A stretch of 19,771 bases of DNA from an uncultured Polyangiaceae bacterium (GCA_964537685.1 CAZICM010000102.1:1-19771); one strand, 5' to 3'. Positions 2,435-19,510 are shown, counted from the first letter of the stretch. The notes: generated by a model not told the origin, from the letters alone. Program-made: numbers and translations.

Positions 2435-3097
2435 ATGGTGGATATGCCCCTCTCCCGCTTGAGCGAAGATGACGACCTCGTCCCCATCTCCGCCCTCCAA
2501 CATTTTTTGTTTTGCGAACGCCAAGCCGCCCTTATTCATATCGAGCGCGTTTGGAAGGAAGATACGGCCACCGCCGAAGGGCGCCTCCTGCATGAGCGCG
2601 CCGATATCCCAGGACGCGAAAATCGCCGCGGCACCCGTATCGAGCGTTCGCTGATGCTCCGTAGCCAAAAATTGATGCTCTATGGCGTGGCCGATACCGT
2701 CGAGTTTCCCGCCCGGGGTAAGGCCGGCCCTCCTTTTCCTGTCGAATATAAACGGGGCCGGGTAAAAGATTTATTGGCCGATCAGGTACAGCTTTGCGCG
2801 CAGGCTTTATGCCTTGAGGAAATGCTGGGCGTACCGGTGCCGGCGGGCGCTATTTTTTATGGTGAAAGCCATAAGCGCCTCGATGTACCTTTCGATGAAA
2901 GCCTTCGCGCCAAAACCCAGGAAAGCGCCCTGCGCATGCACGCGCTTATCCGCAAGGGCGAACTGCCCCAAGCGGTGTATGGCCCAAAATGCAAGCGATG
3001 TTCGCTTGAATCGCTATGCCTGCCCAGGGTTCCAGCCGATGCTCAACGGACACATCGCTATTTAGAGCGGCTATTGACCCAAGATATAGATGCCTAA
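2435..3097 (+). CDS. cas4: CRISPR-associated exonuclease Cas4 (RecB-like nuclease with Fe-S cluster), type I-C-like
   Basis: 220-aa ORF. It has an N-terminal Cys in ISALQHFLFCERQAALIHIE, the VEYKRG (EYK) nuclease motif, QLCAQALCLEEM, and a C-terminal C-x2-C-x5-C (CKRCSLESLC). It sits directly upstream of cas1-cas2. Confidence 0.9.
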   Translation: MVDMPLSRLSEDDDLVPISALQHFLFCERQAALIHIERVWKEDTATAEGRLLHERADIPGRENRRGTRIERSLMLRSQKLMLYGVADTVEFPARGKAGPPFPVEYKRGRVKDLLADQVQLCAQALCLEEMLGVPVPAGAIFYGESHKRLDVPFDESLRAKTQESALRMHALIRKGELPQAVYGPKCKRCSLESLCLPRVPADAQRTHRYLERLLTQDIDA

Positions 3098-3119
3098 TCC
3101 CGGAGGATCTTTATATTTT

Positions 3120-4151
3120 ATGAATCTTCAACTAAATACCCTATTCGTTACCTTGGATGGAGCCTATCTTCATAAAGATCATGCCACGCTGGTCGTCAAG
3201 CAGGAAGGCGAAACCAAGCTTCAGATTCCCATGGCCCATTTAGCATCGGTGGTATGCATGGGGCGCGTCGGCCTATCGCCGGAACTGATGGGCGCATTAA
3301 GCGAAGCGAACATCCATGTTGCCTTTTTCTCTGCGAATGGACGCTTTTTAGCCCGGGTGGAAGGCATGCCGGGCGGGAATGTGCTCTTACGGCGGAGTCA
3401 ATTCCGGGCGGCGGACAGCCGGGAGAAGAGTTTATCGCTGGCGCGATCGATGGTGATTGGGAAAGTGGCGAATACCCGTTCATTTTTAATGCATGCGCGG
3501 CGGGATGCGGGAGACGGCAAGAAGGGGGAGCTTAAGACCGCGTGTGAGCGGTTATCGATTCATTTAAGAGCGCTTGCATCGGCGGATAACCTAGAGACGG
3601 TACGGGGATTGGAAGGCATAGCGGCGAAGGATTATTTTGGGGTATTTGATCATTTAATTAAAAGGCCGGAGGCAGAATTCCGATTTGAAGGCCGGAGCCG
3701 GAGGCCGCCGCGGGATCGGATGAACGCGCTTTTATCGTTTGGCTATGCATTATTGATGCAAGACTGTGCGGGTGCGCTGATGGGGATGGGGCTGGATCCT
3801 GGGGTAGGATTTTTACATGAGGAGCGGCCTGGCCGATTATGTTTAGCGTTGGACATGATGGAGGAGCTACGGTGTGCGGTGGTGGATCGGCTGATGTTAT
3901 CGCTGGTGAACCGTGGGCAGCTTGCGGTGGAAGACTTTATGGAGGAGGCTTCGGGAGGATACCGATTAAAGGACGAAGCGCGCAAGAAGGTATTGGTAGC
4001 GTATCAAGAGAACAAGCAGCAAGAGGTGAGGCATATCTTTTTGGATCAGGCGACGGTATGGGGGCGGGTGCCGCATTTACAGGCGCAATTATTGGCGCGG
4101 GCGCTGCGTGAAGGCGGAGCAGGGGAGTACGCGCCATTTTCGATAAGATAG
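3120..4151 (+). CDS. cas1: CRISPR-associated endonuclease Cas1, type I-C (Cas1c) family
   Basis: MNLQLNTLFVT..., GRFLARVEG..GGNVLLRRSQ, NALLSFGYALL and GLDPGVGFLHE are Cas1c-like blocks. I prefer the ATG at 3120, which has GGAGGA at 3103-3108. The track start at 3090 overlaps the cas4 stop and adds 10 non-conserved residues. The stop at 4151 is secure. Confidence 0.93.
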   Translation: MNLQLNTLFVTLDGAYLHKDHATLVVKQEGETKLQIPMAHLASVVCMGRVGLSPELMGALSEANIHVAFFSANGRFLARVEGMPGGNVLLRRSQFRAADSREKSLSLARSMVIGKVANTRSFLMHARRDAGDGKKGELKTACERLSIHLRALASADNLETVRGLEGIAAKDYFGVFDHLIKRPEAEFRFEGRSRRPPRDRMNALLSFGYALLMQDCAGALMGMGLDPGVGFLHEERPGRLCLALDMMEELRCAVVDRLMLSLVNRGQLAVEDFMEEASGGYRLKDEARKKVLVAYQENKQQEVRHIFLDQATVWGRVPHLQAQLLARALREGGAGEYAPFSIR

Positions 4152-4164
4152 GAGGGAGGGAGCG

Positions 4165-4455
4165 ATGATGGTATTGATATGTTATGATGTAGCACAAGAC
4201 GACAAGGCCGGGGCGAAGCGACTGAGGCGGGTATCGGAAGCGTGTAAAGACTATGGGGTACGTGTACAGTATTCGGTATTTGAGTGCCGGATTGACGGAG
4301 TGATATGGGTCAATTTACGGAACCGGTTATTGAGCGAGATCGATTTGGGGAAGGACAGTTTGAGATTTTATTTTATCCGAGAGAACGACGCGGAGCGGAC
4401 AGAGCATCATGGGGTGAGAAAGCCAGTGGATCCGACGGGGGCGCTGGTGGTCTAG
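4165..4455 (+). CDS. cas2: CRISPR-associated endoribonuclease Cas2
   Basis: 96 aa. MMVLICYDV...RLRRVSEACKDYGVRVQYSVFEC...LRFYFI is a typical Cas2 ferredoxin-fold signature. GGAGGGAGGGAG lies upstream, and the gene is immediately followed by the leader and array. Confidence 0.92.
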   Translation: MMVLICYDVAQDDKAGAKRLRRVSEACKDYGVRVQYSVFECRIDGVIWVNLRNRLLSEIDLGKDSLRFYFIRENDAERTEHHGVRKPVDPTGALVV

Positions 4456-4655: not shown

Positions 4656-7056
4656 GTCGCTCTCTTCTTATGAAGAGGGCGTGGATTGAAACCTGTGCCC
4701 GACGAGCTCACCGGCCTTGTCGAGCAGGTCGCTCTCTTCTTATGAAGAGGGCGTGGATTGAAACTCGATCGCCGATGTTATCGCCGCGCGGATCGGCCTG
4801 TCGCTCTCTTCTTATGAAGAGGGCGTGGATTGAAACTAAAACGCCGCTGTACGTCTCTGCTGGCAGCGTGGTCGCTCTCTTCTTATGAAGAGGGCGTGGA
4901 TTGAAACTATTCGATCGTATGCGGCGACATGCTGCGCCTGCAGTCGCTCTCTTCTTATGAAGAGGGCGTGGATTGAAACGCGATGGTCGCTTCCGCTATG
5001 CGTGGGATCGAGGGTCGCTCTCTTCTTATGAAGAGGGCGTGGATTGAAACTCGAAGGCCGACACGGAGGAGCAGATCCGCGTGCGCGTCGCTCTCTTCTT
5101 ATGAAGAGGGCGTGGATTGAAACAATGACCAAAGGAAAGGAGACGGAGGTAGATGAAAGGTCGCTCTCTTCTTATGAAGAGGGCGTGGATTGAAACGTTG
5201 ATCCAATATCCCCCGCACACATAATCACGTCGCTCTCTTCTTATGAAGAGGGCGTGGATTGAAACTGTACCTTGCTTCTTTGGTATTCCTTGCCCCCAAT
5301 GTCGCTCTCTTCTTATGAAGAGGGCGTGGATTGAAACCTTCATCTTCGTCGCCTCCTCCTGCACTCGCCCAAGTCGCTCTCTTCTTATGAAGAGGGCGTG
5401 GATTGAAACAGCACTTGTTTGATATCCCATCCCGTGTCAATCACGTCGCTCTCTTCTTATGAAGAGGGCGTGGATTGAAACCTATCAATCGATAGCAATT
5501 CCGCGGGCAAAGGCTCGTCGCTCTCTTCTTATGAAGAGGGCGTGGATTGAAACACTTTATCTCCATTGTTTGAAGACATGGAGCATCAGTCGCTCTCTTC
5601 TTATGAAGAGGGCGTGGATTGAAACCACCAATCCGGGCGAGGACCCCAAACACTGTATCGTCGCTCTCTTCTTATGAAGAGGGCGTGGATTGAAACTGTT
5701 ATCAGTGACAAAAAGCCCTCAATATACACAAGTCGCTCTCTTCTTATGAAGAGGGCGTGGATTGAAACGCCGAGCCGCTGCGGCAGCCCGGCGGCTGGGC
5801 AAGTCGCTCTCTTCTTATGAAGAGGGCGTGGATTGAAACCGGGAACGCTCGCGCGTCTTGCTAGACAGCCTGTCGCTCTCTTCTTATGAAGAGGGCGTGG
5901 ATTGAAACCGACGGGATCTGCCTGATCTGCCTCATGTGCCTAGTCGCTCTCTTCTTATGAAGAGGGCGTGGATTGAAACGGGTCTTGCGCCCTAACTAGC
6001 ACGCGATACGTGAGTCGCTCTCTTCTTATGAAGAGGGCGTGGATTGAAACTGAGCTTCTTCCGCCGCTGCTTTGAGTTCTTCAAGTCGCTCTCTTCTTAT
6101 GAAGAGGGCGTGGATTGAAACGGATGCTCTGTCGCGCGCCTTGAATCATCTCAAAGTCGCTCTCTTCTTATGAAGAGGGCGTGGATTGAAACATCAACGA
6201 AAAGCTCATGACGCAGACCTTGTGCAATCGTCGCTCTCTTCTTATGAAGAGGGCGTGGATTGAAACGTAGATCGGGTGACATTTAGGCGACGCCCTGACC
6301 ACGTCGCTCTCTTCTTATGAAGAGGGCGTGGATTGAAACGCCGATATGGCGCGCAGTCCGCGCGTTGACCTTCGGTCGCTCTCTTCTTATGAAGAGGGCG
6401 TGGATTGAAACCATCGCTCACGGCGTCCCATCCCCAGCGCCCATCGGGGTCGCTCTCTTCTTATGAAGAGGGCGTGGATTGAAACCCGTCCGGACCGATA
6501 CCTCGCTTAAACCAGGTGAGGTCGCTCTCTTCTTATGAAGAGGGCGTGGATTGAAACGTGACTTCGCGCGGAGTCGCATTGCTTATCGAAGTCGCTCTCT
6601 TCTTATGAAGAGGGCGTGGATTGAAACCGGTGACGGTTACGGTTACGGTGCCGGTTACGGGTCGCTCTCTTCTTATGAAGAGGGCGTGGATTGAAACGAT
6701 TGGCGATAAACGGATGCAGGAGCCCCCACGATGTCGCTCTCTTCTTATGAAGAGGGCGTGGATTGAAACGATTGGCGATAAACGGATGCAGGAGCCCCCA
6801 CGATGTCGCTCTCTTCTTATGAAGAGGGCGTGGATTGAAACTTGGCTGCTGCGATGTATGCCATCAGGGCGAACGCGTCGCTCTCTTCTTATGAAGAGGG
6901 CGTGGATTGAAACAGCATCCGGCTTGCGTGGGAGAAAGAGGCTTGGGCGTCGCTCTCTTCTTATGAAGAGGGCGTGGATTGAAACATGAACGACCACATC
7001 GCTTTTCGGATCTCTTCGGGTCGCTCTCTTCTTATGAAGAGGGCGTGGATTGAAAC
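4656..7056 (+). CRISPR. CRISPR array with 34 identical 37-nt repeats GTCGCTCTCTTCTTATGAAGAGGGCGTGGATTGAAAC and 33 spacers of 32-37 nt
   Basis: Repeats start at 4656, 4728, 4800, 4871, 4943, 5014, 5087, 5160, 5229, 5301, 5373, 5445, 5517, 5589, 5660, 5732, 5803, 5872, 5943, 6014, 6085, 6156, 6230, 6303, 6375, 6449, 6521, 6591, 6661, 6733, 6805, 6877, 6949 and 7020. The termini GTCGC...GCGTGGATTGAAAC are those of classic type I-C repeats. The internal hairpin pairs GCUCUCUUC with GAAGAGGGC (9 bp including one G-U pair) around a UUAU loop. Confidence 0.99.
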
Positions 7057-7413
7057 TTATAACAGCGAGGATTCAACTCCGATGAATCCGCGCTGAACGA
7101 AACACACTGCAAATCACACGAAGGGGTCGCAGGAAAGGATGCCGAAGCCCCAGCGATCGCATTGATGGCTGATGAAGATGCAGGGATGCCAGCGCTGAAA
7201 AATCCCCGCCGAATGAGCCGCCATCGGAAAATAAGCAATACGCCATTCCCACCTCGGCGCCCATCCCTGCCCTAACCTCCCCGCTCCCGCCATCCTGTCA
7301 CCAAATGGTGTTGCAGGAAGGCGCATTGTCCGACTGATGCGTTTTGCAATTCGTGCTTCAATCTGTCCAAGCTCTGTGGCTTTGAGGGATACGGCGATTG
7401 CCAAGGTAGCCGA

Positions 7414-7437
7414 TCAACAACTCAACAGTTGCATTTG
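7414..7437. repeat. Copy 1 of the 24-bp motif TCAACAACTCAACAGTTGCATTTG (core palindrome CAACT-N4-AGTTG); candidate operator
   Basis: Identical over 24 nt to 13590-13613. It lies in the 540-bp non-coding stretch between the last CRISPR repeat and the gene starting at 7596. Confidence 0.85.
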
Positions 7438-7595: not shown

Positions 7596-8636
7596 ATGAA
7601 AAAATTGCTACGATTTGCCTGCTTTGTGCAAGTCCTGTTTGGTCTTGCTTTTTTTTCTGGCCGAACTGCGCGCGCTCAGTCGAATTCCGAAGAGGTGTTC
7701 AACATGCTCTTCGAGCAGGGCAGCAAAGCCGCTGATAAAGACAACTTCAATGAAACGATCGCGGCTTGGATTCCTGCATATCGCATCAAGCCACACTATA
7801 AGATCGCCTGCGGTATCGGCCGCCTCTCCCTGCGCTTGGAACGCCTTGTGGAGGCCGCAACCTGGCTGAATCGATGCAGGCTCACCGCGCCGCCACCAAA
7901 AACAGACGAAGGCATCGCGAGGCGCGGCACGGAGTTGGTCGAGCTTGAGGTCGCAAAAGCGCATCTCATCACCGCAGCCGTTCATGCAGAACCAGGGGCA
8001 ACGATCTTTGCTCACGGTGACGAAATGGGGATCGCTCCGCTCAACGTGACCCTGTTTTTTGCGCCCGGTAAAAACTCGATCGAGGCGCGGAAATCAGGCG
8101 AAACCATGACCATAGCTTTTGAGGGCGAGCGTGGTCAGGAACTCACTATCGATTTAAGGCCGCGCCAATTGCCCGCGCGCGTCGTCCCTATCTCAGACGC
8201 AGAAACCCCTTCGCCTCTCGTGACCGCGCCTGTGCCTGCTCCGGCCACCCTCACCATGCCCTCGTGGGAACCCAAGCCCGCAACGTGGCGCTCATGGGGC
8301 AAAATTGCCCGAAGCAACGTCTACATTTTTACGATGGGTGGTGCTTTTGCCCTCGGCGGTTACTTTGCTCTTGTGAGCGAGGGAATGCAGGACAGCCACG
8401 AAATGGAGCTCAGCATGGCGGTGAAATACACGCGAATGGGGCTCTATGTGGAAGCTGCTTCCGCACTTGACTCGGCCAAATCCGCGAACTTCTGGCGCCT
8501 TGTGTCTTCCGGATTTTCGACCGCGTTTCTTATCGCCGGTAGCACGATGGCTAGTGGATGGCTGGGCGCCGTGACGTTGGACAATGTTTCGATTGGCCGT
8601 GACTCGGCCTTGGTTCAAGGGAGTTTTCGATGGTGA
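7596..8636 (+). CDS. Secreted/membrane protein with a PEGA-like domain (hypothetical)
   Basis: 346 aa. The signal peptide is MKKLLRFACFVQVLFGLAFFSGRTARA. A PEGA-like segment reads GATIFAHGDEMGIAPLNVTLFFAPGKNSIEARKSGE. A Pro-rich linker follows, then two C-terminal hydrophobic helices (VYIFTMGGAFALGGYFALV and FSTAFLIAGSTMASGWLGAV). The stop overlaps the next start (ATGGTGA). Confidence 0.65.
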   Translation: MKKLLRFACFVQVLFGLAFFSGRTARAQSNSEEVFNMLFEQGSKAADKDNFNETIAAWIPAYRIKPHYKIACGIGRLSLRLERLVEAATWLNRCRLTAPPPKTDEGIARRGTELVELEVAKAHLITAAVHAEPGATIFAHGDEMGIAPLNVTLFFAPGKNSIEARKSGETMTIAFEGERGQELTIDLRPRQLPARVVPISDAETPSPLVTAPVPAPATLTMPSWEPKPATWRSWGKIARSNVYIFTMGGAFALGGYFALVSEGMQDSHEMELSMAVKYTRMGLYVEAASALDSAKSANFWRLVSSGFSTAFLIAGSTMASGWLGAVTLDNVSIGRDSALVQGSFRW

Positions 8637-9592
8637 CGCTCGGCAGATTCGCGTTGATGGTTGCGGGATTCTTACTTCTCGCCGATGGATGCGGCACGGC
8701 GGAAGCAACACAAGAAGCCTACGATAAGTGCCTCGATTTCAACTATGGGCATGGCGGCCCTGCAACTGGCGAGGGAGGCCAAGGCGGAAGCGTCGCCAAT
8801 GCATGCACGCCTGAATGTACAGCAGAAACGGCGGCGAAGGATTGCGCCGCTCTGGCGCCCGATCCTCGTTGCGGAAGCGTGGTGTGTGTTGAAAACAGGT
8901 GTGCGCGGCAAATTAAGCCCGGCCCGATTCCTTCCCAAAAATATGGCGACTGCAAACAAGCCGTTTGTGATGGAGCGGGCAACCTGATCGAAATAGGTGA
9001 TGATACGGATTACTACAACGATGGGAATCAATGCACTGTTGATTTTTGCAAGAGTGGCGCGGCGCATTTCGTGATGCCAGACGGTGTTCAATGCCCCGAA
9101 ACGGACGAGGGATTTTGTTATAATGGCGAATGCGTTGAATGCATTGGCACTTTGCCACAGGCCGCATGCAAAGGCGCCGGGATGGTCTGCAATCAGTTTT
9201 GGTGTGAACTCTTTGTGGATTGCATTGGAAAGTGTGGCGGCAATTGCGTCCCGTGCTCCTTTGGCCAAGCATGCATTGAGAATGCCGATTGCTTGAGCGG
9301 AGTTTGTGCGAATGGAATATGTCAATTCCCGACATGCGCGGACGGGGTCAAGAACGATGGAGAGACGGGCAAGGATTGCGGTGCCCCAAGCTGCGCCGAT
9401 TGTCCACCCGGCGAGGGTTGTGTGCTGCCCGAGGATTGCCTTAGTTCTGTCTGCATGTTGGGAATTTGCCAAGCTCCCACATGCACCGATGGAGTGAAAA
9501 ACGGCGACGAGGAAGGCATTGATTGTGGCGGCAGTTGCGGCGCATGCTTTGCCCAATGGGAGAAAAAAATGCGCAAACGGGGTAGTATTTAG
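8630..9592 (+). CDS. Secreted cysteine-rich repeat protein (hypothetical)
   Basis: 320 aa. The N-terminal hydrophobic leader MVTLGRFALMVAGFLLLADGC is followed by about 40 Cys residues. There are two clear C-terminal modules of the form C-x-x-x-x-DCLS-x-VC-x-x-GICQ-x-PTC-x-DGVKN-x-x-E-x-G-x-DCG-x-x-x-C-x-x-C. The start is translationally coupled to the upstream gene. Confidence 0.75.
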   Translation: MVTLGRFALMVAGFLLLADGCGTAEATQEAYDKCLDFNYGHGGPATGEGGQGGSVANACTPECTAETAAKDCAALAPDPRCGSVVCVENRCARQIKPGPIPSQKYGDCKQAVCDGAGNLIEIGDDTDYYNDGNQCTVDFCKSGAAHFVMPDGVQCPETDEGFCYNGECVECIGTLPQAACKGAGMVCNQFWCELFVDCIGKCGGNCVPCSFGQACIENADCLSGVCANGICQFPTCADGVKNDGETGKDCGAPSCADCPPGEGCVLPEDCLSSVCMLGICQAPTCTDGVKNGDEEGIDCGGSCGACFAQWEKKMRKRGSI

Positions 9593-9655
9593 ATCAACCG
9601 CCACGGCAAAGAACAAGGTCAACCCAGCAAGCCAAATCGCAATACGGAGGAGAGA

Positions 9656-10381
9656 ATGATTAAATTTCCGGGCAAACACCAGCGGCTTCGACAAATAGCC
9701 ATTACGGGCGCGATCCTTATTTCGACGCTTATGCATGCCCCTAAAGCAAGAGGCACCGATTTTGGTGATCTTGGGATCGAGCCCATCGATGCGGATGCAA
9801 TGCGTTCCTATATGACGGCTCATTATCGAGACATTCAAGTCCACGGAGGCGTATCGATTGGCCTTGGCGCGGTGGGCATGGCGGCCGGTGCGTATCTGCT
9901 CCTTCGGCCGCCCGCAGCGGAACACCGCAAGATTTCGATCCCCTTGCTGACCTTTGGAGTGAGTCAAATTGTTGTTGGCTCGCTTTTAGTCGCATTTCCC
10001 CCTCCACACGTTGCCGAGGCGGGAGGCATGCTCACAAACGACCCCGATCGATTCATCACTTCTGAGCAGGACCGTGCGAGCAATCTCCACCGGCTTCTCA
10101 CGTATGGGGTGGTCGGCGCGTCTAGCAGCGTTTTGATTCCCATGGTTGTATGGTTGTTTTCAGATGAGTTCAAGAAGACTTGGCAGCCGCTCATCGTCAC
10201 ACAGGTGGGCGAAGGGTTAATAACGTGGCTTATGGCTTCATCACTTCAGGGGTCTTTGGAGGATTATCAGCGGAAGCTCTTTGGCTTTGAGCTGAACAGA
10301 GCATTGCAATCCCCTGGTAGTCCTCAACCAAAACCAATGTTGACCCGCCCGATCATGTTCAAGGTAACGGTTCCATTTTAG
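9656..10381 (+). CDS. Integral membrane protein (hypothetical)
   Basis: 241 aa with GGAGGAG 5 nt upstream of the start. Hydrophobic segments include ITGAILISTLMHA, VSIGLGAVGMAAGAYLLL, LLTFGVSQIVVGSLLVAF and LLTYGVVGASSSVLIPMVVWLF. I recognise no family. Confidence 0.6.
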   Translation: MIKFPGKHQRLRQIAITGAILISTLMHAPKARGTDFGDLGIEPIDADAMRSYMTAHYRDIQVHGGVSIGLGAVGMAAGAYLLLRPPAAEHRKISIPLLTFGVSQIVVGSLLVAFPPPHVAEAGGMLTNDPDRFITSEQDRASNLHRLLTYGVVGASSSVLIPMVVWLFSDEFKKTWQPLIVTQVGEGLITWLMASSLQGSLEDYQRKLFGFELNRALQSPGSPQPKPMLTRPIMFKVTVPF

Positions 10382-10465
10382 GCCCTTCTTTCGCTTTAGG
10401 CGAATGATTTCACATGGTCTTATGATATCGATCTTGATTACCCGCTTGAACTGAAGGAAGACTCC

Positions 10466-12628
10466 ATGAAAGACTGGCTTCGATTTGGCAGCAAAATAGG
10501 CGACCACACCATCACGGGTGTTGGCCGGCACGGCACGGATATCCAGCGATACAAGGCCATTCATCGCAGAACTCGTGTCCCGGTTATCATCACTTGCACG
10601 ATGTACGACAAAGAGCGAGGGCCGTTCAACTTTGAGGCTCGAGCTGAATATCGAGCCTCGCTTAACATTTGCGTGCCTTTGCTAGACTGGGGTAAGACCG
10701 AACAAGGTTTGTTTTACCTCGTCGAACCGGACCTGAACATCCAACCTCTCAACTCTCTTCCAGACTCCTCCTCCCCACAAATGATTTGCGTAGTGGCCCA
10801 TGCTTTGGCCTGCCAGCTCAGAGCGTTTGCCAGGGCGTATTTTTTACACGGTGCCCTTGAACCGCGGGAAACTGTGGGGATTGTTAAAGGACAGGTTACA
10901 ATCTACGGTGTGGGTTTCCGTCAGATCCTTGAACGCGACAGGGGGATAGGAATTCACGCAAGCGATCACACCGCACCCGAAATCATGGATGGAAGAACGT
11001 GGGATCACAAGGCGGACGTATACAGTGTGTGTTCTATTGTAGCATCGATGTGGAAAGTCTGCAACAAGTCGCTCCGCGATTTGGGGTTCGTTGGCGACTT
11101 GTTGGAACTGGGCTTGCGCCCGGACCCAGCGGAGCGCTTGATGTGGGGAGACTTTGTGCGTGTGTTTGGCGATCTTTTGCACCAAATCATTGAGCACACA
11201 TGGCCACCGGGCGAGAAGACCGATCGGGTCAAAAAATTTTTGGAAAAGGAAGCGGATTCCAGGCCGGATTCGGACGAAACGCCCATTGACAATCACACCG
11301 AGCCCCTGGACGCTAAAGTGCTTGGGGACTGGGAGATCCGTCTGCAATTCGCGGAAGCAAGCGATGGGATCGAAAGCTACCTTGCCCAACGGATTCGCGG
11401 CTCTGAAGTCGCTTTATTGCGCAGATCTCGATCGTCCACGGTGCACGCAACGGCGCTACACGCAACCGCGCTAAAGGAGTGGATGGCGAAACGGGACACG
11501 ATCACTCAACCAAACATCCCTTCGTTGGTGGACGCAGGTGTAAGTTGCGATGGATGGATGTTCGTTGCCGAGGATTTCCCGGCAGAGAATGTCCTACCCT
11601 CCCTTTTTGAATTCGGGAGCCTCGAGAACCAGCGCGAAAAGGTTCTCAAGACTGTGCGGAGCGCGGCGCAAGCACTTCAAACAGCGGCAAAACGCGGAGT
11701 GTTTCACGGGGATTTGGTGCCCAACCGCGATTTGATCGTTGATCGAAAGAATGGACGATTGATGGTGATGGGGATCGGAGCTCTTCAAGCCTTCGGCCTC
11801 GGGGAACATGTGACGAGCAACCCTCACGCCGCACCGGAACGGCGCGCGGGAGAGCCCTTTGATCACCGCGCCGATATGTATGCACTTGCGGCGATTCTTC
11901 GCGAAGCGCTGAGCCAAGCGGGAACAGAAGAGCTTGAAGGATGTTTCGTCCAATTTTTTGAGATCGCGTTAGCCCCCAAACCGGCGGATCGTTTCAAAAC
12001 CTGGGGAAAGTTCCTCGCATCGCTGGATCGATGCCTGAAATTGTCCGCGGCGCAATCGGCGAAAAGCAAAGGCGGGACAAGACCGGCAGCGCCCACCACG
12101 GCGCCCGCCCACACGCCGACGAGCTGGACGCCGTCATCCAGCGATCCTACACCGCCTCCGGCACCTCAAGGCGCAAAAGCGGGCGAACGCGAAGCCGCAC
12201 GGGTGCTCGAGCTCGTGGTGAACCCCGCGAACGAAAACACCCAGCATGGGCCGAAAGGGACGGAGGGCGAGACGATCGACCGTGAAACCCTGCCTTCGCC
12301 GGTTTTCGCTCCAGCGTGGCGGCCATCGCGTGCATTGGCCTGGATCGCTTCAAGCGTGGGCGGCGTCGCTTCTGTTGCGGCATCCCTCGCGTTGCTTTGG
12401 TCTGCGCGCGTTCCCCCCCTCGCGCCGTTTGAGTTGGTCCAAAGTCCTGCGACATATGAAACCTCGAGTGTGTTATGGGCCATGAGTGCGGTGGAAGGCA
12501 TTCGATCCATCGAGCCTTCGCAATCCGCAATTGTATCGCACCCGAGGGGCAGCCATGCGCGCCTCGAACCCGCCCGTTCGCGCGGTTGCAGCCTTGTTCA
12601 CTGCACGCTCGAAGGGGATCAAGAATGA
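10466..12628 (+). CDS. Membrane-anchored protein with two tandem degenerate Ser/Thr-kinase-like (pseudokinase) domains
   Basis: 720 aa. Domain 1 has a G-loop GVGRHG, but VAIK is replaced by VIIT, HRD by HGA (FLHGALEPRE) and DFG by YGVGF; TAPE and DVYSVCSI are kept. Domain 2 has no G-loop; VALLR replaces VAIK, HGDLVPNRD keeps the Asp and Asn, MGIG replaces DFG, and AAPE and DMYALAAIL are kept. A Pro/Thr-rich linker, one TM helix (ALAWIASSVGGVASVAASLALLW) and a tail of about 90 aa follow. Confidence 0.7.
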   Translation: MKDWLRFGSKIGDHTITGVGRHGTDIQRYKAIHRRTRVPVIITCTMYDKERGPFNFEARAEYRASLNICVPLLDWGKTEQGLFYLVEPDLNIQPLNSLPDSSSPQMICVVAHALACQLRAFARAYFLHGALEPRETVGIVKGQVTIYGVGFRQILERDRGIGIHASDHTAPEIMDGRTWDHKADVYSVCSIVASMWKVCNKSLRDLGFVGDLLELGLRPDPAERLMWGDFVRVFGDLLHQIIEHTWPPGEKTDRVKKFLEKEADSRPDSDETPIDNHTEPLDAKVLGDWEIRLQFAEASDGIESYLAQRIRGSEVALLRRSRSSTVHATALHATALKEWMAKRDTITQPNIPSLVDAGVSCDGWMFVAEDFPAENVLPSLFEFGSLENQREKVLKTVRSAAQALQTAAKRGVFHGDLVPNRDLIVDRKNGRLMVMGIGALQAFGLGEHVTSNPHAAPERRAGEPFDHRADMYALAAILREALSQAGTEELEGCFVQFFEIALAPKPADRFKTWGKFLASLDRCLKLSAAQSAKSKGGTRPAAPTTAPAHTPTSWTPSSSDPTPPPAPQGAKAGEREAARVLELVVNPANENTQHGPKGTEGETIDRETLPSPVFAPAWRPSRALAWIASSVGGVASVAASLALLWSARVPPLAPFELVQSPATYETSSVLWAMSAVEGIRSIEPSQSAIVSHPRGSHARLEPARSRGCSLVHCTLEGDQE

Positions 12629-12685
12629 ATATGAAGCCGATTATGTTCGAATTGAAGTTTGCCTTCTGATTGGTCGTTTGAAGCT

Positions 12686-13093
12686 ATGCCTGCAAAACCC
12701 CTTTCAGCCGTCGAGGTAGGGAACCGCATACGCGAGCACCGAAGAGCGCGGGGGCTGATTCTTGCCGACTTGGCCCGAAAAGCGGGCCTAACGATGGAAC
12801 AGCTTCAAAGGATTGAGCAAGGTCTGCACGATCCAACGGCTTCGGTGCTTTGGGCCATCGCAAGGGGGCTAGGGCTGTCACCTGGAGACATTCTAGCGCC
12901 ACGGGGCACACTGTCAGATGAAGCTCGAGAGTTTATCGAGCTTTGCGCGATGGTGCCGAGTGAAGTGCAGCAGGCACTTGTGCAGATTATGAGGGCAAGC
13001 CTTGCCGAAGTGCGCCCCGCCACATCTTCGCCATCCTTGAAGCGAGACGGGAAGGCGAGTCAAGGAAAGCGGCCGAAGGCGATCGGGAGATAG
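12686..13093 (+). CDS. XRE-family helix-turn-helix transcriptional regulator (paralog 1 of 3)
   Basis: VGNRIREHRRARGLILADLARKAGLTMEQLQRIEQGLHDPTASVLWAIARGLGLSPGDIL is a canonical XRE/Cro-C1 HTH. I prefer the ATG at 12686; the track start at 12659 is a TTG. The stop at 13093 is secure. Confidence 0.85.
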   Translation: MPAKPLSAVEVGNRIREHRRARGLILADLARKAGLTMEQLQRIEQGLHDPTASVLWAIARGLGLSPGDILAPRGTLSDEAREFIELCAMVPSEVQQALVQIMRASLAEVRPATSSPSLKRDGKASQGKRPKAIGR

Positions 13094-13142
13094 GATGTAT
13101 GCTTTTTGAGACTCGGCTTACATCGGACTTGATTCCTCGCTT

Positions 13143-13163
13143 GAAGAGGGCGGGGATTGAAAC
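13143..13163 (+). repeat. Solitary CRISPR half-repeat: GAAGAGGGCGGGGATTGAAAC matches the 3' 21 nt of the array repeat at 20 of 21 positions
   Basis: The array repeat at positions 17-37 reads GAAGAGGGCGTGGATTGAAAC, so there is a single T-to-G difference. The half-repeat lies 6.1 kb from the array, on the same strand, and ends 18 nt upstream of the ATG (13182) of XRE paralog 2. The sequence on its 5' side is not repeat-like but can still form a short CCTC/GAGG stem. Confidence 0.9.
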
Positions 13164-13181
13164 AAACCAGGAGATCGGACG

Positions 13182-13562
13182 ATGCAACGCGAGAGACAAG
13201 ATAGCAAAGCGGAGCTTGGCGCGGTGATTCGGCGATGGCGGGCAAGGCAGAGCCTAACCATTGAGACATTGGGAGAGCGAGCGGGCTTGCACAAAGACGA
13301 TCTGATGATGATCGAGTGTGGCGAGTGCGATCCGGCCTTTTCGACGGTATGCGCAATCGCGGCGGGTTTTGGGTTGAGCGCGGGCGAGATGCTATCCGAC
13401 GATCATGAGGCGTTAGCCGACAGCGCGCTCGAAATGGTCAGGCTTTTTGCCGATGCGCCGGAGCCGATAAGCAGTGCGTTGCCAGGCTTTTTGAATGCCT
13501 GCATTGCCGCGAAAGAGGCGAAGGCAAGGCGAAGGGCGCGGGGGAAGGCGATAGGGAGCTAA
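13182..13562 (+). CDS. XRE-family helix-turn-helix transcriptional regulator (paralog 2 of 3) with a conserved C-terminal extension
   Basis: 126 aa with AGGAG at 13169-13173. The HTH reads LGAVIRRWRARQSLTIETLGERAGLHKDDLMMIECGECDPAFSTVCAIAAGFGLSAGEML. The C-terminal block ADSALEMVRLFADAPEP...ACIAAKEAKARRRARGK is shared with paralog 3. Confidence 0.88.
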   Translation: MQRERQDSKAELGAVIRRWRARQSLTIETLGERAGLHKDDLMMIECGECDPAFSTVCAIAAGFGLSAGEMLSDDHEALADSALEMVRLFADAPEPISSALPGFLNACIAAKEAKARRRARGKAIGS

Positions 13563-13589
13563 AGAACAGGACAACCTATGGGTACTCAG

Positions 13590-13613
13590 TCAACAACTCA
13601 ACAGTTGCATTTG
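13590..13613. repeat. Copy 2 of the 24-bp motif TCAACAACTCAACAGTTGCATTTG; candidate operator
   Basis: Identical to 7414-7437. It lies 28 nt after the stop of XRE paralog 2 and upstream of paralog 3. Confidence 0.85.
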
Positions 13614-13663
13614 CCCCGATTCATCCCACGGTGACTTTTTGCTCCAGCGCTCTTCGTGTCGGT

Positions 13664-13687
13664 TCAACAACTCAAATGTTCTATTCG
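13664..13687. repeat. Degenerate copy 3 of the 24-bp motif (TCAACAACTCAAATGTTCTATTCG, 19 of 24 identical)
   Basis: Aligned by eye to copies 1 and 2. The first 12 nt are identical and the second half-site is degenerate. It starts 74 bp downstream of the start of copy 2. Confidence 0.6.
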
Positions 13688-13797
13688 TCCTCTCTGCGCC
13701 TTCCCAGCACAACCGCGCTCCTCTGAAGCCCGAATCGCCCGCTTCGCAGAATTAGGGTGACTGCAAACAAGTTGTGTGCAATAACGATGGTCGTCGA

Positions 13798-14304
13798 ATG
13801 GAAATGAACGACGACTCCGATACTTACAACGATGGCAATCTCGGCCCGGCCGACGACGGCCAAAGCAGCTCAAGCTTCGACCAGCGGAGCACGGACCCGG
13901 CAGGCGATCGAATCATCGATCACGAGAAGCTCGAGAAGCTCGATGCCAAGTCAGAGCTCGGCATGGCAATCCAACGTTGGCGGATAAGGCGGGGGCTAAG
14001 CGTAGAGGCATTGGGAGAACGGGCAGGGTTGCTTGGGCACCATGTCTTGATGATTGAGCGCGGGGAGTGCGATCCCGCGTTTTCGACGGTAGCCGCAATC
14101 GCGGCGGGTCTTGGGTTGAGCGCAGGCGAAATGCTATCCGGGGATCATGAGGCTATCGCGGATAGTGCGCTCGAAATCGTGCGGCTGTACGCGGATGCGC
14201 CGGAACCGGTGAAGAGCTCGCTTCCAACCTTTTTGATGGCGTGTATTGCAGCCAAGGAGGCTAAGGCCAAGCGGAGGGCGCGAAGAAAGCCCAGCGGAAG
14301 CTAA
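13798..14304 (+). CDS. XRE-family helix-turn-helix transcriptional regulator (paralog 3 of 3) with an acidic, low-complexity N-terminal extension
   Basis: The HTH (LGMAIQRWRIRRGLSVEALGERAGLLGHHVLMIERGECDPAFSTVAAIAAGLGLSAGEML) and the C-terminal block (ADSALEIVRLYADAPEP...ACIAAKEAKAKRRARRK) are very close to paralog 2. The start is uncertain: GTG at 13774 (track), ATG at 13798 or ATG at 13804. The stop at 14304 is secure. Confidence 0.8.
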   Translation: MEMNDDSDTYNDGNLGPADDGQSSSSFDQRSTDPAGDRIIDHEKLEKLDAKSELGMAIQRWRIRRGLSVEALGERAGLLGHHVLMIERGECDPAFSTVAAIAAGLGLSAGEMLSGDHEAIADSALEIVRLYADAPEPVKSSLPTFLMACIAAKEAKAKRRARRKPSGS

Positions 14305-14399
14305 AAGAACGAGGCGATGCCCACAAAGCCTCTTTCGGCCACGGCCCGCTTTGCAAAAAAGTGCTTGACGCCTCCCTGGGGAAAAGGCAGGCCAAAGAC

Positions 14400-14945
14400 A
14401 TGAAGACAAAACAGCGAGAAGACTTGCTCGGCACACTAAAAACCCGCTTTGAAAAAAATATGCGCCGTCATTTGGGCCTTGAATGGGCAAAGGTGCAAGC
14501 CAAGCTGGAGGCGAGTGCTGAAAAGCTACGGTCGCTCGGCGAAATGGAGAGAACGGGCGGCGAGCCGGATGTCGTTGGCTACAATCAACAAAGCGGCGAG
14601 TATTTGTTTATGGATTGTTCTGCGGAAAGCCCCGAGGGCCGCAGGAGTATTTGTTATGACCGGGAGGCGTTGGATTCAAGAAAAGAACATAAACCGGCCG
14701 ATACCGCCATGGATATGAGCAAGGCCATGGGGATTGAAATGCTCACGGAAGAACAATACCGGACGCTGCAATCCCTTGGAGAATTCGATACAAAAACATC
14801 GAGCTGGCTAAAAACACCCGCTGAAATTAGAAAACTCGGCGGCGCTATCTTTGGCGACCGCCGCTACAATCATGTCTTTGTGTATCACAACGGCGCTTCG
14901 TCTTATTATGCCGCCAGGGGATTCCGGGGCGCGCTGAGGGTCTGA
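14400..14945 (+). CDS. DUF4256 family protein (function unknown)
   Basis: The blocks MERTGGEPDVVGY, FMDCSAESPEGRRSICYD, GIEMLTEEQYRTLQ, FDTKTSSWLKTP and GGAIFGDRRYNHVFVYHNGASSYYAARGFRGALRV are, as I recall them, the conserved DUF4256 blocks. I prefer the ATG at 14400 over the GTG at 14361 used by the track. Confidence 0.78.
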   Translation: MKTKQREDLLGTLKTRFEKNMRRHLGLEWAKVQAKLEASAEKLRSLGEMERTGGEPDVVGYNQQSGEYLFMDCSAESPEGRRSICYDREALDSRKEHKPADTAMDMSKAMGIEMLTEEQYRTLQSLGEFDTKTSSWLKTPAEIRKLGGAIFGDRRYNHVFVYHNGASSYYAARGFRGALRV

Positions 14946-16894: not shown

Positions 16895-17035
16895 GGCTAA
16901 ATCCGCCTAGGAGTGTAAGCCATAAACAGGGGCTTCCTCCACTGTTTGCTTACGGTGTATGTTCAGAAGCCGGGCCGGGCGCCGCCGCCTTGGGGCATCC
17001 GCTTCTGCCCACCTGCCAAATGGAGGAACCGGGTC

Positions 17036-19117
17036 ATGCCGGTCTTAGAGCTGTCTTTTGCATCCGGAGAATCTTCTCTCGGTGTGCGCCGGTTTTCGGT
17101 GCATGAAACGCTTTCCAGCTTGTTTTCAGTGTCCGTCTGGGCGCGCTCGGAGAATCCGGGTGTCGATTTAGAGGCGCTGATCGGTCAGGAGGCTTCGCTG
17201 CGTGTTCAGAGCGGCGTGAAATTCGCGCGGCTCGGCGGGGCACGGCTGTGGACGGGCATTGTCAGCAATGCTCAGCAGGTGCAGGCCGTGATTCCCGGAG
17301 GCGGCACCAAGGAGCTTTCGACCTATTACGTGCGCATTGTGCCCAAGCTGTGGCTTTTGACCCAGAAGCGCAATTACCGGGTGTTCCAGCACCAATCGAT
17401 TCCAGACATCGTTGAAAAGATTTTGGGCGACTGGGCGATCGAGCCGACGTGGAAGCTGGGCGGAGAACATCCCAAGCTCGAGTTTAAGGTTCAGTACGCG
17501 GAGAGCGACTACTCGTTTATCAGCCGGCTCTTGGAGGAGGCCGGGATTGCCTTCTGGTTCCCCGATGATGACAACAACGGCTCAAAGCTGTTTTTGGGCG
17601 ACAAGCTCGAGTCGGGCGAGCTGAGGCCGGGCGAGGCGCTGAGTTTCGTCGACAATCCCAATCAAGAGGCCGAAAAAGAATTTGTCACGCGGGTTCGCAT
17701 TTCCCACGAAGTGAAGCCGGGCGCGCATGTGATGCGGTCTTTTGATTTCCGCAATCCGACCTTTAATTTAATGGGCGACGGCCCTCAGCTTATGGGCGCG
17801 GATGGGCGTTTCGAGCAATATCACTACGAACCCAACTCATTTAATATTGAGACCGACAAGGGCGGCAACACACCGGTCGCGGACGACAAAGGCACGGCGA
17901 GACATAGCGAAGCCTATGGGCGGGAGCGGGCCGAAAAGCGTTTATTGGCCGAGCGTTCGGGGCACCGGGCCGTCACATTCGACACAAACACCATCGATTT
18001 ATGGCCTGGGCAAATTCTAAAAATTGACCGGCATCCCCACGGTGAAATCAACGATTCGAGCAAGCTTCTGGTGACAGAGTTTTCGGTCGAAGGCACACCG
18101 GAAGGCGAATGGAACATGTCGGCGAGGGCCGTGTTTACGGATATGCCTTACCGGCCTCAGAACAAGACGCCCAAACCCCGGGTTGAAGGCGTACAGAGCG
18201 CGCTGGTCGTCGGACCGAAGGGCCAAGAGATTCACACCGATGAATTTGGCCGGGTTCGCGTGCATTTTCCCTGGGATCGGGAAAGCAAATCGGACGATTT
18301 CAGTTCGCTGTGGGTGCGCGTAAGCCAGGGCTGGGCGGGCACGGGTTATGGAATGATTGTGATTCCGCGCATTGGCCAAGAAGTATTGGTGGCCTTTGTG
18401 GCGGGCGATCCCGATCAGCCCATTGTGGTTGGCCGGGTATTCAACGCGACGCAGACGCCGCCCTATAAATTGCCCGAACACAAGACAAGAAGCACCTGGA
18501 AGAGCGACTCATCGCTGGGCTCGGACGGCTTTAACGAGATTATGTTCGAGGATCTCAAAGGCCACGAACTCGTATGGGAACAGGCGCAGAAGAACCGGAG
18601 GCGCCTGGTCAAAAACGACGAGTTTATAACCGTCGTCCACGATCGGCAGAAACTGGTCAAGCACGACGAAACCGAGCGAACGCTGGGTTTTGTAAAGATC
18701 TACATCGGCAAAGATCAAGACATTGTCATCAAGCATGACAAGCGCGAGCGCGTAGAAGGCAATAGCCATTTGCGCATATACGGCAAACGCAACCAACAGG
18801 TGGATGGCAAGCAATCCCTAACGGTAAAGGGCGACCGGCATGAGATTGTCGAGAAGAATCATGCGCTTGCGGCCGGCGAAGAGATTCATATCTCGGCGGG
18901 CACCCAACTGGTCATCGAAGCCGATCAGGACATTACGATCAAAGGTCCGGGCGGCTTTGTACGCATTGATTCGAGCGGCGTGATCATCAACGGCAAGACA
19001 GTAAAGATCAACAGCGGCGGATCGCCTGGATCGGGCAAAGGCTCGAGCCCGGATGCACCGGTTGAAGCGGTGGAAGGCAATACCGACGACGTGAGCAAGA
19101 CGCTCATTGGTCAATAG
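17036..19117 (+). CDS. vgrG: Type VI secretion system spike protein VgrG (TssI)
   Basis: The N-terminus MPVLELSFASGESSLGVRRFSVHETLSSLFSVSV is typical of VgrG. Other matching blocks are YYVRIVPKLWLLTQKRNYRVFQHQSIPDIVEKIL, VQYAESDYSFISRLLEEAGIAFWF, the gp5 OB-fold block RVHFPWDRES...WVRVSQGWAGTGYGMIVIPRIGQEVLVAFVAGDPDQPIVVGRVFN, and C-terminal beta-helix repeats. GGAGGA lies 8 nt upstream of the ATG at 17036. The track start at 16946 is an upstream in-frame extension. Confidence 0.93.
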   Translation: MPVLELSFASGESSLGVRRFSVHETLSSLFSVSVWARSENPGVDLEALIGQEASLRVQSGVKFARLGGARLWTGIVSNAQQVQAVIPGGGTKELSTYYVRIVPKLWLLTQKRNYRVFQHQSIPDIVEKILGDWAIEPTWKLGGEHPKLEFKVQYAESDYSFISRLLEEAGIAFWFPDDDNNGSKLFLGDKLESGELRPGEALSFVDNPNQEAEKEFVTRVRISHEVKPGAHVMRSFDFRNPTFNLMGDGPQLMGADGRFEQYHYEPNSFNIETDKGGNTPVADDKGTARHSEAYGRERAEKRLLAERSGHRAVTFDTNTIDLWPGQILKIDRHPHGEINDSSKLLVTEFSVEGTPEGEWNMSARAVFTDMPYRPQNKTPKPRVEGVQSALVVGPKGQEIHTDEFGRVRVHFPWDRESKSDDFSSLWVRVSQGWAGTGYGMIVIPRIGQEVLVAFVAGDPDQPIVVGRVFNATQTPPYKLPEHKTRSTWKSDSSLGSDGFNEIMFEDLKGHELVWEQAQKNRRRLVKNDEFITVVHDRQKLVKHDETERTLGFVKIYIGKDQDIVIKHDKRERVEGNSHLRIYGKRNQQVDGKQSLTVKGDRHEIVEKNHALAAGEEIHISAGTQLVIEADQDITIKGPGGFVRIDSSGVIINGKTVKINSGGSPGSGKGSSPDAPVEAVEGNTDDVSKTLIGQ

Positions 19118-19141
19118 AGCGATAGCGATAAGGAGAGGACG

Positions 19142-19510
19142 ATGCCTGCGGTATCACGCATCACAGATCTGCATACCTGTCCCGCGCACGGCGGAGGTCC
19201 GGTCATTACGGGCGAAACCTCGGTCATCATTGGCAATCAGCCGGTAGCGCGGGTAGGCGACAAAATGGTCTGCGGGCCATCCGTCGATGTGATTGTTCAA
19301 GGGGAAAACTCAGTAACCGTGGGATATATGCCTGTAGCCCGCATTGGCGACGGAACGGCGCACGGCGGAAAGCTATCCAAAGGCGATCCCACGGTTATCA
19401 TCGGCTCGAGTCCTCAGAACGAAACACTAAAAACGGACAAGCCTTTCTGCGAAGAATGCGAACGCGCGAGAAAAGAAGAGGAAGCGCGGGCCCAGCGCGG
19501 AAAGGCATAG
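19142..19510 (+). CDS. PAAR-domain protein (T6SS spike tip)
   Basis: 122 aa. ITDLHTCPAHGGGPVITGETSVIIGNQPVARVGDKMVC...VTVGYMPVARIGDGTAHGGKLSKGDPTVIIG is a PAAR-repeat pattern. AAGGAGAGG lies upstream, and the gene sits immediately downstream of vgrG. It has a short charged C-terminal tail with a CEEC motif. Confidence 0.9.
   Translation: MPAVSRITDLHTCPAHGGGPVITGETSVIIGNQPVARVGDKMVCGPSVDVIVQGENSVTVGYMPVARIGDGTAHGGKLSKGDPTVIIGSSPQNETLKTDKPFCEECERARKEEEARAQRGKA

Follow-up and report, generated by a model that had tools for sequence, protein, structure and literature searches.

The locus described here raises the question of how the 3' part of a CRISPR repeat came to lie by itself, about 6 kb past an array, in the leader of a gene encoding an XRE-type regulator, and whether it has a function in that position. 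The window, by which the whole analysed stretch of 19,771 nt of DNA is meant, contains the following features that bear on this question.

2435..4455, + strand, cas4, cas1 and cas2, with Cas1 of type I-C by TIGR03640
4656..7056, + strand, CRISPR array of 34 identical 37-nt repeats and 33 spacers
7596..12628, + strand, 'cassette A', encoding proteins of 346, 320 and 241 aa and a 720-aa kinase-like protein
12686..13093, + strand, XRE paralog 1 (XRE1), 135 aa, its stop codon 88 nt before the start of paralog 2
13143..13163, + strand, repeat-derived 21-mer, corresponding to repeat nt 17-37 and identical at 20/21 positions
13153, + strand, the single mismatch of the 21-mer (T in the repeat, G here), immediately 3' of the Cas5c cut site
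13182..13562, + strand, XRE paralog 2 (XRE2), 126 aa, HTH_31, with the Shine-Dalgarno sequence AGGAG at 13169-13173
about 13804..14304, + strand, XRE paralog 3 (XRE3), DNA about 74 % identical to paralog 2

The ectopic repeat fragment and its surroundings

The genes cas4 (2435-3097), cas1 (3090-4151) and cas2 (4165-4455) all lie on the + strand, and a leader of 200 nt separates cas2 from the array. The predicted Cas1 scored 462 bits against the type I-C model TIGR03640 (cut-off 385), and the array repeat, GTCGCTCTCTTCTTATGAAGAGGGCGTGGATTGAAAC, folds into a 10-bp stem followed by an 11-nt tail, UGGAUUGAAAC, the tail being the pattern of type I-C (PMC8524198). The array and the cas4-cas1-cas2 genes are of type I-C. 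No cas3, cas5, cas8c or cas7 was found in the window, including the region upstream of cas4, where there are 630 non-coding nt, including a 42-nt tandem repeat, and, beyond these, a divergent SpvB/FG-GAP toxin-like ORF running off the window. Four other contigs encoding an identical Cas2 likewise start at cas4, and effector genes are absent from these contigs too; they could be located elsewhere in the genome.

The region between the array and the XRE genes is occupied by cassette A, of which a paralogous 'cassette B' is present in related strains. Its four genes have no family assignment, and the 720-aa protein matches PD-T4-6 defence-kinase models. Downstream of the three XRE genes there are a DUF4256 gene, peptidoglycan-hydrolase genes on the opposite strand, vgrG and a PAAR gene. 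As signs of a mobile element, integrase and phage genes were looked for, and none was found in the window.

The 21-mer at 13143-13163, GAAGAGGGCGGGGATTGAAAC, lies on the same strand as the array repeats and comprises the 3' stem arm, GGCG and the 11-nt type I-C 5'-handle of the repeat. Its first base is 6,086 nt from the end of the last repeat. It is situated in the 88-nt gap between the stop codon of XRE1 and the start of XRE2, and is followed by AAACC, the AGGAG at 13169-13173, 8 nt and the ATG (13182) of the 126-aa HTH_31 protein. The preliminary description had claimed an identity of 20/21 between the 21-mer and the 3' part of the repeat, in the orientation of the array, and this was confirmed, the number of such matches expected outside the array by chance being 0.00 (200 shuffles). 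In a search of the window for the 3' 21-mer with up to three mismatches, only the 34 array copies and 13143-13163 (one mismatch) were found, so that the 21-mer, which had also to be considered as a possible common genomic motif, has its sole site outside the array there. When the whole window was compared with the repeat in a scan that allowed gaps, 13143-13163 scored 40 over a background with a mean of 13, a standard deviation of 3 and a maximum of 25, and was thus a 9-sd outlier. A degenerate half-repeat directly after the last array repeat (TTATAACAGCGAGGATTCAA) was also considered and rejected; its score of 19 is within the background.

That the 21-mer resembles the repeat by chance, or is a motif common in genomes without any relation to CRISPR, has next to no probability. 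Nothing but the shortness of the match speaks for it, and against it stand the identity of 20/21 (21/21 in the related contig L019), the expectation of 0.00, the position as the sole site outside the array and, as independent support, the exact agreement with the split in the match to spacer 26 presented below. The 21-mer is a genuine ectopic fragment of the repeat and derives from the array.

Completing the repeat would take 16 more nt, and of the 16 at this place just 5 match when aligned without gaps. The TCGCT at 13137-13141 is identical to repeat nt 2-6, and the site can therefore also be read as a repeat with an internal deletion of 9 nt (nt 7-15), which gives a match of 26/28 to the repeat over 13136-13163; by our own estimate, a 5-mer match of this kind would arise by chance in about 1 % of cases. 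The repeat-derived part is specific to the leader of paralog 2, with the ribosome-binding site and start codon of XRE2 coming next, as had been described earlier. A relation to the region upstream of paralog 1 had been proposed as well, and here the similarity is real but weak (CTGATTGGTCGTTTGAAG vs TTGATTCCTCGCTTGAAG, 14/18), being equalled in 39 of 2000 shuffles (p ~0.02).

The 21-mer belongs to the class of standalone CRISPR repeat-like sequences, which are dynamically generated and lost (Shmakov et al. 2023, PMC10120712). Like those, it is intergenic and outside the array, matches the resident repeat over at least 16 bp (20/21 here), is partly degraded and is conserved in close relatives (loci 95-100 % identical). 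It differs from the cases of Shmakov et al. in its place (the leader of an unrelated regulator gene, 6 kb past the array, instead of an interval between cas genes), in consisting of the 3' part of the repeat only, without a mini-array or a predicted target, and in having its empty site recorded by a spacer of the same array. It is unusual in that it splits the match to a resident spacer, marks a recurrent breakpoint and keeps exactly the Cas5c determinants.

Spacer 26 and the interrupted match

The sequences on either side of the 21-mer correspond to consecutive parts of one spacer of the array:

6486..6520, + strand, spacer 26, CCGTCCGGACCGATACCTCGCTTAAACCAGGTGAG
13124..13142, + strand, left flank, matching spacer 26 nt 6-23 with one gap and two mismatches and containing TCGCT
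13164..13175, + strand, right flank, matching spacer 26 nt 24-35 at 10/12 positions

When the 21-mer was deleted in silico, spacer 26 aligned as CGGAC-CGATACCTCGCTTAAACCAGGTGA with CGGACTTGATTCCTCGCTT^AAACCAGGAGA at a score of 38, and all other spacers scored 26 or less anywhere in the array-masked window, so that the link to spacer 26 claimed earlier proved both real and precise. Exact 8+8 split matches to spacers, with gaps of 1-100 nt, occurred twice in the real window, the match of spacer 26 being one of the two, and 0.61 times per shuffled window, and a split match by itself is therefore unremarkable. The split and the 21-nt gap fall exactly on the borders of the independently defined 21-mer; the chance of a split at a given position and with a given gap is about 3.5e-7. 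Since spacer 26 matches the joined flanks, this array has sampled an uninterrupted leader, which exists today or did so in the past. No DNA copy of such a leader was found in the sequences searched, and spacer 26 is its sole evidence. The tandem arrangement of the XRE1-XRE2-XRE3 paralogs makes the uninterrupted leader the natural ancestral state.

The reading that we prefer, and to which we assign about an even chance, is that the 21-mer arose passively, when the locus recombined illegitimately with the array nearby, and that its effects are in cis. Under this reading, the last 21 nt of a type I-C repeat would have gone into the existing intergenic leader between XRE1 and XRE2 at CTT^AAAC. The likeliest source would be one of the 34 repeats 6 kb away, by way of template switching or illegitimate recombination, for which TCGCT/TGAAG on the left and AAAC on the right would have offered short homologies, and the outcome would be a lineage-specific structural variant at a rearrangement hot spot. 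We infer an insertion at this locus rather than a deletion in the donor of the spacer, arguing from parsimony. Flanking microhomology explains the exact 21-nt event under neither the insertion nor the deletion reading, and at the right junction the AAAC is duplicated, not shared. A slippage deletion of 21 nt in the spacer donor was considered separately and rejected, as there is no flanking direct repeat that would give that product.

About 9 of the 35 nt of spacer 26 disagree with the resident flanks: its first 5 nt have no counterpart, and the remainder aligns with one gap and three mismatches. Strains that have diverged by 1-4 % overall have just 0-2 changes over the whole leader. The donor of the spacer was therefore a clearly diverged copy, from a relative or from a paralogous locus, and such an uninterrupted, diverged donor is more likely than the resident copy shortly before the insertion. 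TTC is a functional PAM for type I-C in general, the motif being taken from the type and not from this particular system; the PAM-homologous place at the resident leader reads GCT/CTT. Self-targeting would call for a functional PAM at this place and for near-complete complementarity, including the PAM-proximal seed, and the complementarity is here interrupted by 21 nt.

The suggestion in the preliminary description that the insertion is an escape scar from self-targeting by spacer 26 holds insofar as the insertion does lie inside the match, and fails insofar as it makes the resident copy the recent source of the spacer. A true escape scar, for which spacer 26 would have been taken from this very locus and autoimmunity would have selected both the insertion and the loss of the effector genes, is improbable, though it has some appeal: self DNA near an array is a known hot spot of acquisition, and the effector genes are missing from upstream of cas4, their normal place in type I-C loci. 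Loss of cas genes and mutation of the target are documented routes of survival under self-targeting (PMC6990116). Against such a scar weigh the 9 or so differences in 35 positions beside the insertion, where one change would suffice, the 0-2 leader changes among the diverged strains and the absence of TTC from the PAM place; the use of a repeat fragment as filler would also be left unexplained. The coincidence of the insertion with the match would have a simple account in survivorship, namely that a spacer derived from kin is kept only if the resident copy differs at that place, and the insertion is such a difference.

Under the preferred passive origin, the first effect in cis would be that crRNA-26 cannot recognise the resident copy, given the 21-nt interruption, the PAM-proximal mismatches and the lack of TTC, and spacer 26 could consequently be kept against uninterrupted copies in relatives or at paralogous loci. 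Spacer 26 had no meaningful match in phage, plasmid or IMG/VR collections, and a comparison of the other spacers with the variable cassettes gave nothing above background. Occurrence of GATACCTCGCTTAAACCAGGTGAG with a 5' TTC on another replicon or in another strain would favour a spacer directed against a kin copy.

Spacer 26 can be compared with tolerated self-targeting or cross-reactive spacers (Stern et al. 2010, as reviewed in PMC6990116; 'heterologous autoimmunity', bioRxiv 10.1101/2021.01.04.425308). In those systems, as here, there is similarity between a resident spacer and a chromosomal site. Tolerance is accounted for by a disrupted target, the lack of a PAM and missing cas genes in those systems and at this locus alike. 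Unlike in those systems, the disruption at this locus is a piece of a CRISPR repeat exactly inside the protospacer, and no description of a protospacer disrupted in this way was found. A single array here holds both the source of the insert, the repeat, and the record of the empty site, spacer 26. If the insertion is a mere scar, it illustrates that a spacer against kin DNA can persist by way of an indel in the resident copy; if it was linked to the CRISPR machinery, it would represent a new route for resolving autoimmunity and for making ectopic repeats.

Breakpoints at the repeat end in related strains

The comparative set consisted of about a dozen short metagenomic contigs, all from close relatives. 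The exact XRE2 protein was encoded by seven Logan contigs, 98.6-100 % identical to the window, all seven of which carry the 21-mer element; the version in L001 is GAAGTGGG. Altogether, the element was present in L001-L007, L010, L019 and L030 (95-100 % identical to the window), and every strain with the XRE1 leader carries it.

Over cassette A and XRE1 the contig L019 is 97 % identical to the window; it shares the left flank and contains a perfect 21/21 copy of the repeat part. Its homology to the window stops at 13163/13164, which is the 3' end of the repeat. Past the repeat there are about 35 nt of unrelated DNA, then the 3' third of a gene for a 331-aa protein and, further on, a 510-aa kinase-like gene; this downstream region is a 5'-truncated cassette B, paralogous to cassette A of the window. 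L019 additionally has a 72-nt insertion 27 nt upstream of the 21-mer. The contig L030 has the element as well, and its homology to the window stops at 13167/13168, 4 nt past the repeat end. The contig L009, from a sample shared with L030, consists of unrelated DNA and then of homology starting from CAGGAGATCGGACG-ATG. The best interpretation of L030 and L009 together is that an unknown element has been inserted at AAAC^CAGG, and an N-gap scaffold, L010, agrees with it. The upstream region of the type found in L008, L009 and L020 had been a candidate for a repeat-less allele; this was rejected, the AAAC^ end in L030 and the ^CAGGAG start in L009 being explained most simply by the inserted element.

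An alignment of 11 sequences has full conservation up to the repeat end, followed by three different continuations. At least four structural events are thus crowded into about 50 nt, three of them no more than 4 nt from the 3' end of the repeat. The locus is a rearrangement hot spot, and the island around it is hypervariable and contains paralogous kinase/XRE cassettes. Two of the 21 positions of the 21-mer, one of them the Cas5c-critical U, differ between strains with an overall identity of 95-100 %; variation at this level between such close strains gives no suggestion of constraint on the 21-mer.

For the preferred reading as a passive scar, the two further junctions within 4 nt of the repeat end are an adverse point, as they look like something more. 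They might be accommodated if the ectopic repeat end were an active joining site. Cas1-Cas2-Cas4, or repair templated by the array, would then have put the fragment inside a kin or self protospacer and disarmed it, and the same end would later have been reused for swapping the defence or regulatory cassettes downstream. We regard this as a minor possibility. The three structural junctions within 4 nt of the repeat end in close strains are what this proposal draws on. If true, it would provide a birth route for ectopic repeats and would mean that CRISPR repeats reshape neighbouring islands.

The junctions are also relevant to the possibility, in our opinion a slight one, that the 21-mer is the remnant of another array, whether a second or an older one, or of a piece of an array that has moved, and is what a deletion left of a repeat-spacer unit. 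L019, with its perfect half-repeat and about 35 nt of orphan sequence, would then be the less eroded state, and repeats would have served as homology patches in the exchange of cassettes. The interval in question (L019:3902-3936), from the repeat end to the start of homology with the 331-aa-protein gene, measures 33-35 nt, which is the length of a spacer; the homology between strains stops at the repeat end as if the partners shared the repeat alone, and the last array repeat and the 21-mer bracket cassette A in direct orientation. On the other side, spacer 26 has the flanks contiguous without a repeat, the left junction is the same in all strains, and no other repeat copies were present in any related locus retrieved. 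The 35 nt of L019, moreover, are matchless and internally palindromic, and encode in frame a hydrophobic N-terminus loosely like that of the intact protein. As a bona fide spacer these 35 nt are without support.

Relatives of the XRE proteins were sought in GTDB genomes, JGI metagenomes and IMG/VR, which returned distant HTH proteins only, and an index of 5.8 billion proteins returned only near-identical sequences and paralogs. No meaningful match to the 21-mer, the XRE2 start or the 35-mer of L019 was found in IMG/VR, phages or plasmids. An ORF of 42 codons that spans the leader (13099-13227) was rejected, its frame being lost in L019 and L030.

Candidate functions, the predicted hairpin and the Shine-Dalgarno sequence

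CreA/CreR guides and RNA anti-CRISPRs have ectopic repeats as their raw material. Both types of function had been proposed for the 21-mer in the preliminary description, and neither found a basis in the window.

For a guide of the CreA/CreR type (CreTA, PMC9458426; CreR, bioRxiv 10.1101/2023.03.10.532045) the resemblance lies in a degenerate repeat with a handle-encoding 3' end, followed by a possible pseudo-spacer. The 21-mer differs in having no second repeat, no PAM-flanked promoter target and no adjacent Cascade genes or toxin gene, and its pseudo-spacer would be the ribosome-binding site and start of XRE2 itself. Downstream of 13163, no second repeat was found, either as an ungapped match of at least 20/37 or as gapped similarity above background. 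Within the window the only partial target of the pseudo-spacer was a 10/12 match, which is the tail of spacer 26 inside the array, and there was none near cas4 or the leader of the array. Mini-arrays of this type lie within or beside an effector-complex operon, and the 21-mer lies 6 kb past an array that is accompanied by cas4, cas1 and cas2 only.

The RNA anti-CRISPR RacrIC1, with acrIC5, is likewise a single type I-C repeat-like unit on the transcript of a protein gene and near HTH genes (PMC10651486). Racrs mimic the whole repeat and its fold, have a strong promoter of their own and are found on phages or plasmids (PMC10651486). Unlike these, the element here keeps 21, or at most 27, of 37 nt (nt 17-37 with TCGCT), is predicted to fold differently, has no predicted promoter and resides on the array-bearing chromosome. 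In place of the native 10-bp stem there is a 9-bp stem with five pairs in the native register. A scan of the + strand from 12400 to 14400 with the sigma-70 consensus, which may not be that of the host, gave no site, and Rfam gave no match. The genes of the window and the searches of IMG/VR, phage and plasmid collections gave no link to a virus, plasmid or mobile element. In this genome the 21-mer probably does not work as a crRNA-like guide or as a Cas decoy.

The fold of the leader has the following element at its centre:

13134..13156, + strand, predicted 9-bp hairpin, UCCUCGCUU / GGGCGGGGA, loop GAAGA

The arms of the hairpin lie at 13134-13142 and 13148-13156, and its predicted energy is -13.8 kcal/mol (z = -3.7), with none of 200 shuffles being as stable. 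Five pairs on the loop side (CGCUU/GGGCG) keep the register of the native stem base, and the outer four pairs occupy the first four nt of the handle. Recognition by the Cas5c of B. halodurans is centred on UGG, the loop and the 5' overhang being dispensable, and the Cas5c of S. mutans tolerates changes better (PMC8524198). The part of the repeat that survives here is thus the part that Cas5c is reported to read, namely the stem base in its native register and the whole 11-nt tail. The UGG lies directly downstream of the cut, and the G at 13153 takes the place of its U; the change from T to G turns a U.U into a U.G pair and is predicted to stabilise the hairpin by 3.5 kcal/mol (from -10.3 to -13.8). 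L019 has T at the equivalent position, so that its UGG is intact. The array repeat has the features of a Cas5c substrate and L019 keeps the stem base and UGG; the copy in the window has GGG and a predicted stem over the cut site. In 10 of the 11 aligned sequences a G stands in place of the critical U, and the predicted stem encloses the cut site.

From these features it could be supposed that the XRE1-XRE2 transcript carries a working miniature type I-C repeat, bound or cut by Cas5c alone or with Cascade, which would uncouple XRE2 from XRE1, load Cas7 over the ribosome-binding site or act as a Cas5c decoy; the output of XRE2 would then follow the level of Cas protein. We consider this unlikely. 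It is favoured by the nature of the part that was kept, which includes the stem base, cut site and 3' overhang read by Cas5c (PMC8524198), by the five inner pairs in native register and the intact UGG of L019, and by its presence in all strains having the XRE1 leader; RacrIC1-acrIC5, a solitary type I-C repeat co-transcribed with a protein gene, is a precedent (PMC10651486). It is opposed by the lack of cas5c, cas7, cas8c and cas3 in the window and the related contigs, by the G in place of the critical U in 10 of 11 sequences and the pairing of the first four handle bases, by the lack of a second repeat and of a partial target, and by the 21-mer showing no sign of purifying selection. The organism's own chromosome, beside its own array, would also be an odd site for an anti-CRISPR decoy. 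Today the 21-mer probably has no Cas-dependent function. If the preferred passive scar is the correct reading, it illustrates that a partial repeat near an HTH gene should not be read as a regulatory RNA in the absence of a second repeat, a target and an effector.

A second effect in cis may nevertheless follow from a passive scar. In fold models of the uninterrupted leader, the pyrimidine tract UCCUCGCUU pairs with the Shine-Dalgarno region; with the insert, it is predicted to pair with the inserted GGGCGGGGA, leaving the Shine-Dalgarno sequence free. The stable hairpin would thus capture a tract that is otherwise paired with the Shine-Dalgarno sequence. The differences in fold at the Shine-Dalgarno sequence were indistinguishable from those of shuffles (z = -1.1 to -1.6), and its release is accordingly a plausible cis effect and not a stronger claim. 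An origin of the insert by snap-back or fold-back was also considered and rejected; the stem contains three G.U pairs and hence is not a reverse complement at the DNA level.

The CRISPR array and the DNA ahead of cas4

The type I-C array contains an identical pair of neighbouring spacers, 29 and 30, which is one repeat-spacer unit present twice, so recombination does occur inside the array. Directly 3' of the last repeat lies a trailer that loosely resembles nt 13-35 of the repeat, with indels.

6698-6732 and 6770-6804: spacers 29 and 30, both GATTGGCGATAAACGGATGCAGGAGCCCCCACGAT
7057-7076: array trailer, TTATAACAGCGAGGATTCAA

As a degenerate repeat the trailer scored 19, which is not significant because it falls inside the background (mean 13, sd 3, maximum 25).

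No type I-C effector genes were found ahead of cas4 in positions 1-2434 of the window. The space ahead of cas4 is occupied by 630 nt of non-coding DNA containing a tandem repeat, beyond which a partial toxin ORF is located, and this arrangement matches that of contigs from other samples.

2012-2149: tandem repeat of a 42-nt unit, 3.3 copies
1804 to 1, divergent: partial ORF with SpvB and FG-GAP (Tc/Rhs-type toxin)

Cassettes, regulators and T6SS genes downstream of the array

The four genes which follow the array (cassette A, 7596-12628) encode products of 346, 320 and 241 amino acids and a kinase-like protein of 720 amino acids. In related strains (loci L023, L026 and L019) the paralogous cassette encodes proteins of 331, 510 (kinase-like) and 374 amino acids together with two XRE proteins. 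Between the two cassettes, the Cys-rich proteins of 374 and 320 amino acids share 52 % identity, and both kinase-like proteins (720 and 510 aa) match PD-T4-6 defence-kinase models with E values of 1e-20 to 1e-22.

A repeated motif, (G)TCAACAACTCAACAGTTGCATTTG, which includes the palindrome CAACT...AGTTG, precedes the first gene of cassette A in one copy and XRE3, the last of the three tandem regulator genes, in two. It is also kept in the diverged contigs L008 and L020, and is a candidate operator of the XRE proteins.

7405-7437: motif copy upstream of cassette A
13581-13613 and 13655-13687: motif copies upstream of XRE3
16946-19510: vgrG (723 aa) and PAAR genes

In contig L001, which continues past the end of the window, vgrG and PAAR are followed by an FHA/DUF4123 gene (T6SS adaptor). 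M23 and LysM peptidoglycan-hydrolase genes are located on the strand opposite vgrG/PAAR. The array therefore adjoins an auxiliary T6SS effector cluster, and the kinase and XRE cassettes may be an undescribed module within a defence or T6SS island.

The junction ahead of XRE2 and the L019 gene remnant

In a lineage with 85-89 % identity to the window (L008, L020-L022; L009, L010), a (TGGA)n microsatellite and approximately 90 nt of unknown DNA directly precede the XRE2 ribosome-binding site. Assemblies break at this place, and it lies at the start of the L008 and L020-L022 contigs. Taken with L030, in which homology to the window ends 4 nt past the repeat fragment, this region appears to be the right end of an inserted element.

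A TTG that belongs to the repeat fragment (gaTTGaaac) is the first codon of the longest ORF in the truncated L019 gene, and GAGGG is found 7 nt ahead of it.

L019, 3895-4218: longest ORF of the truncated gene

The repeat fragment in L019 may supply the translation start of this gene remnant.
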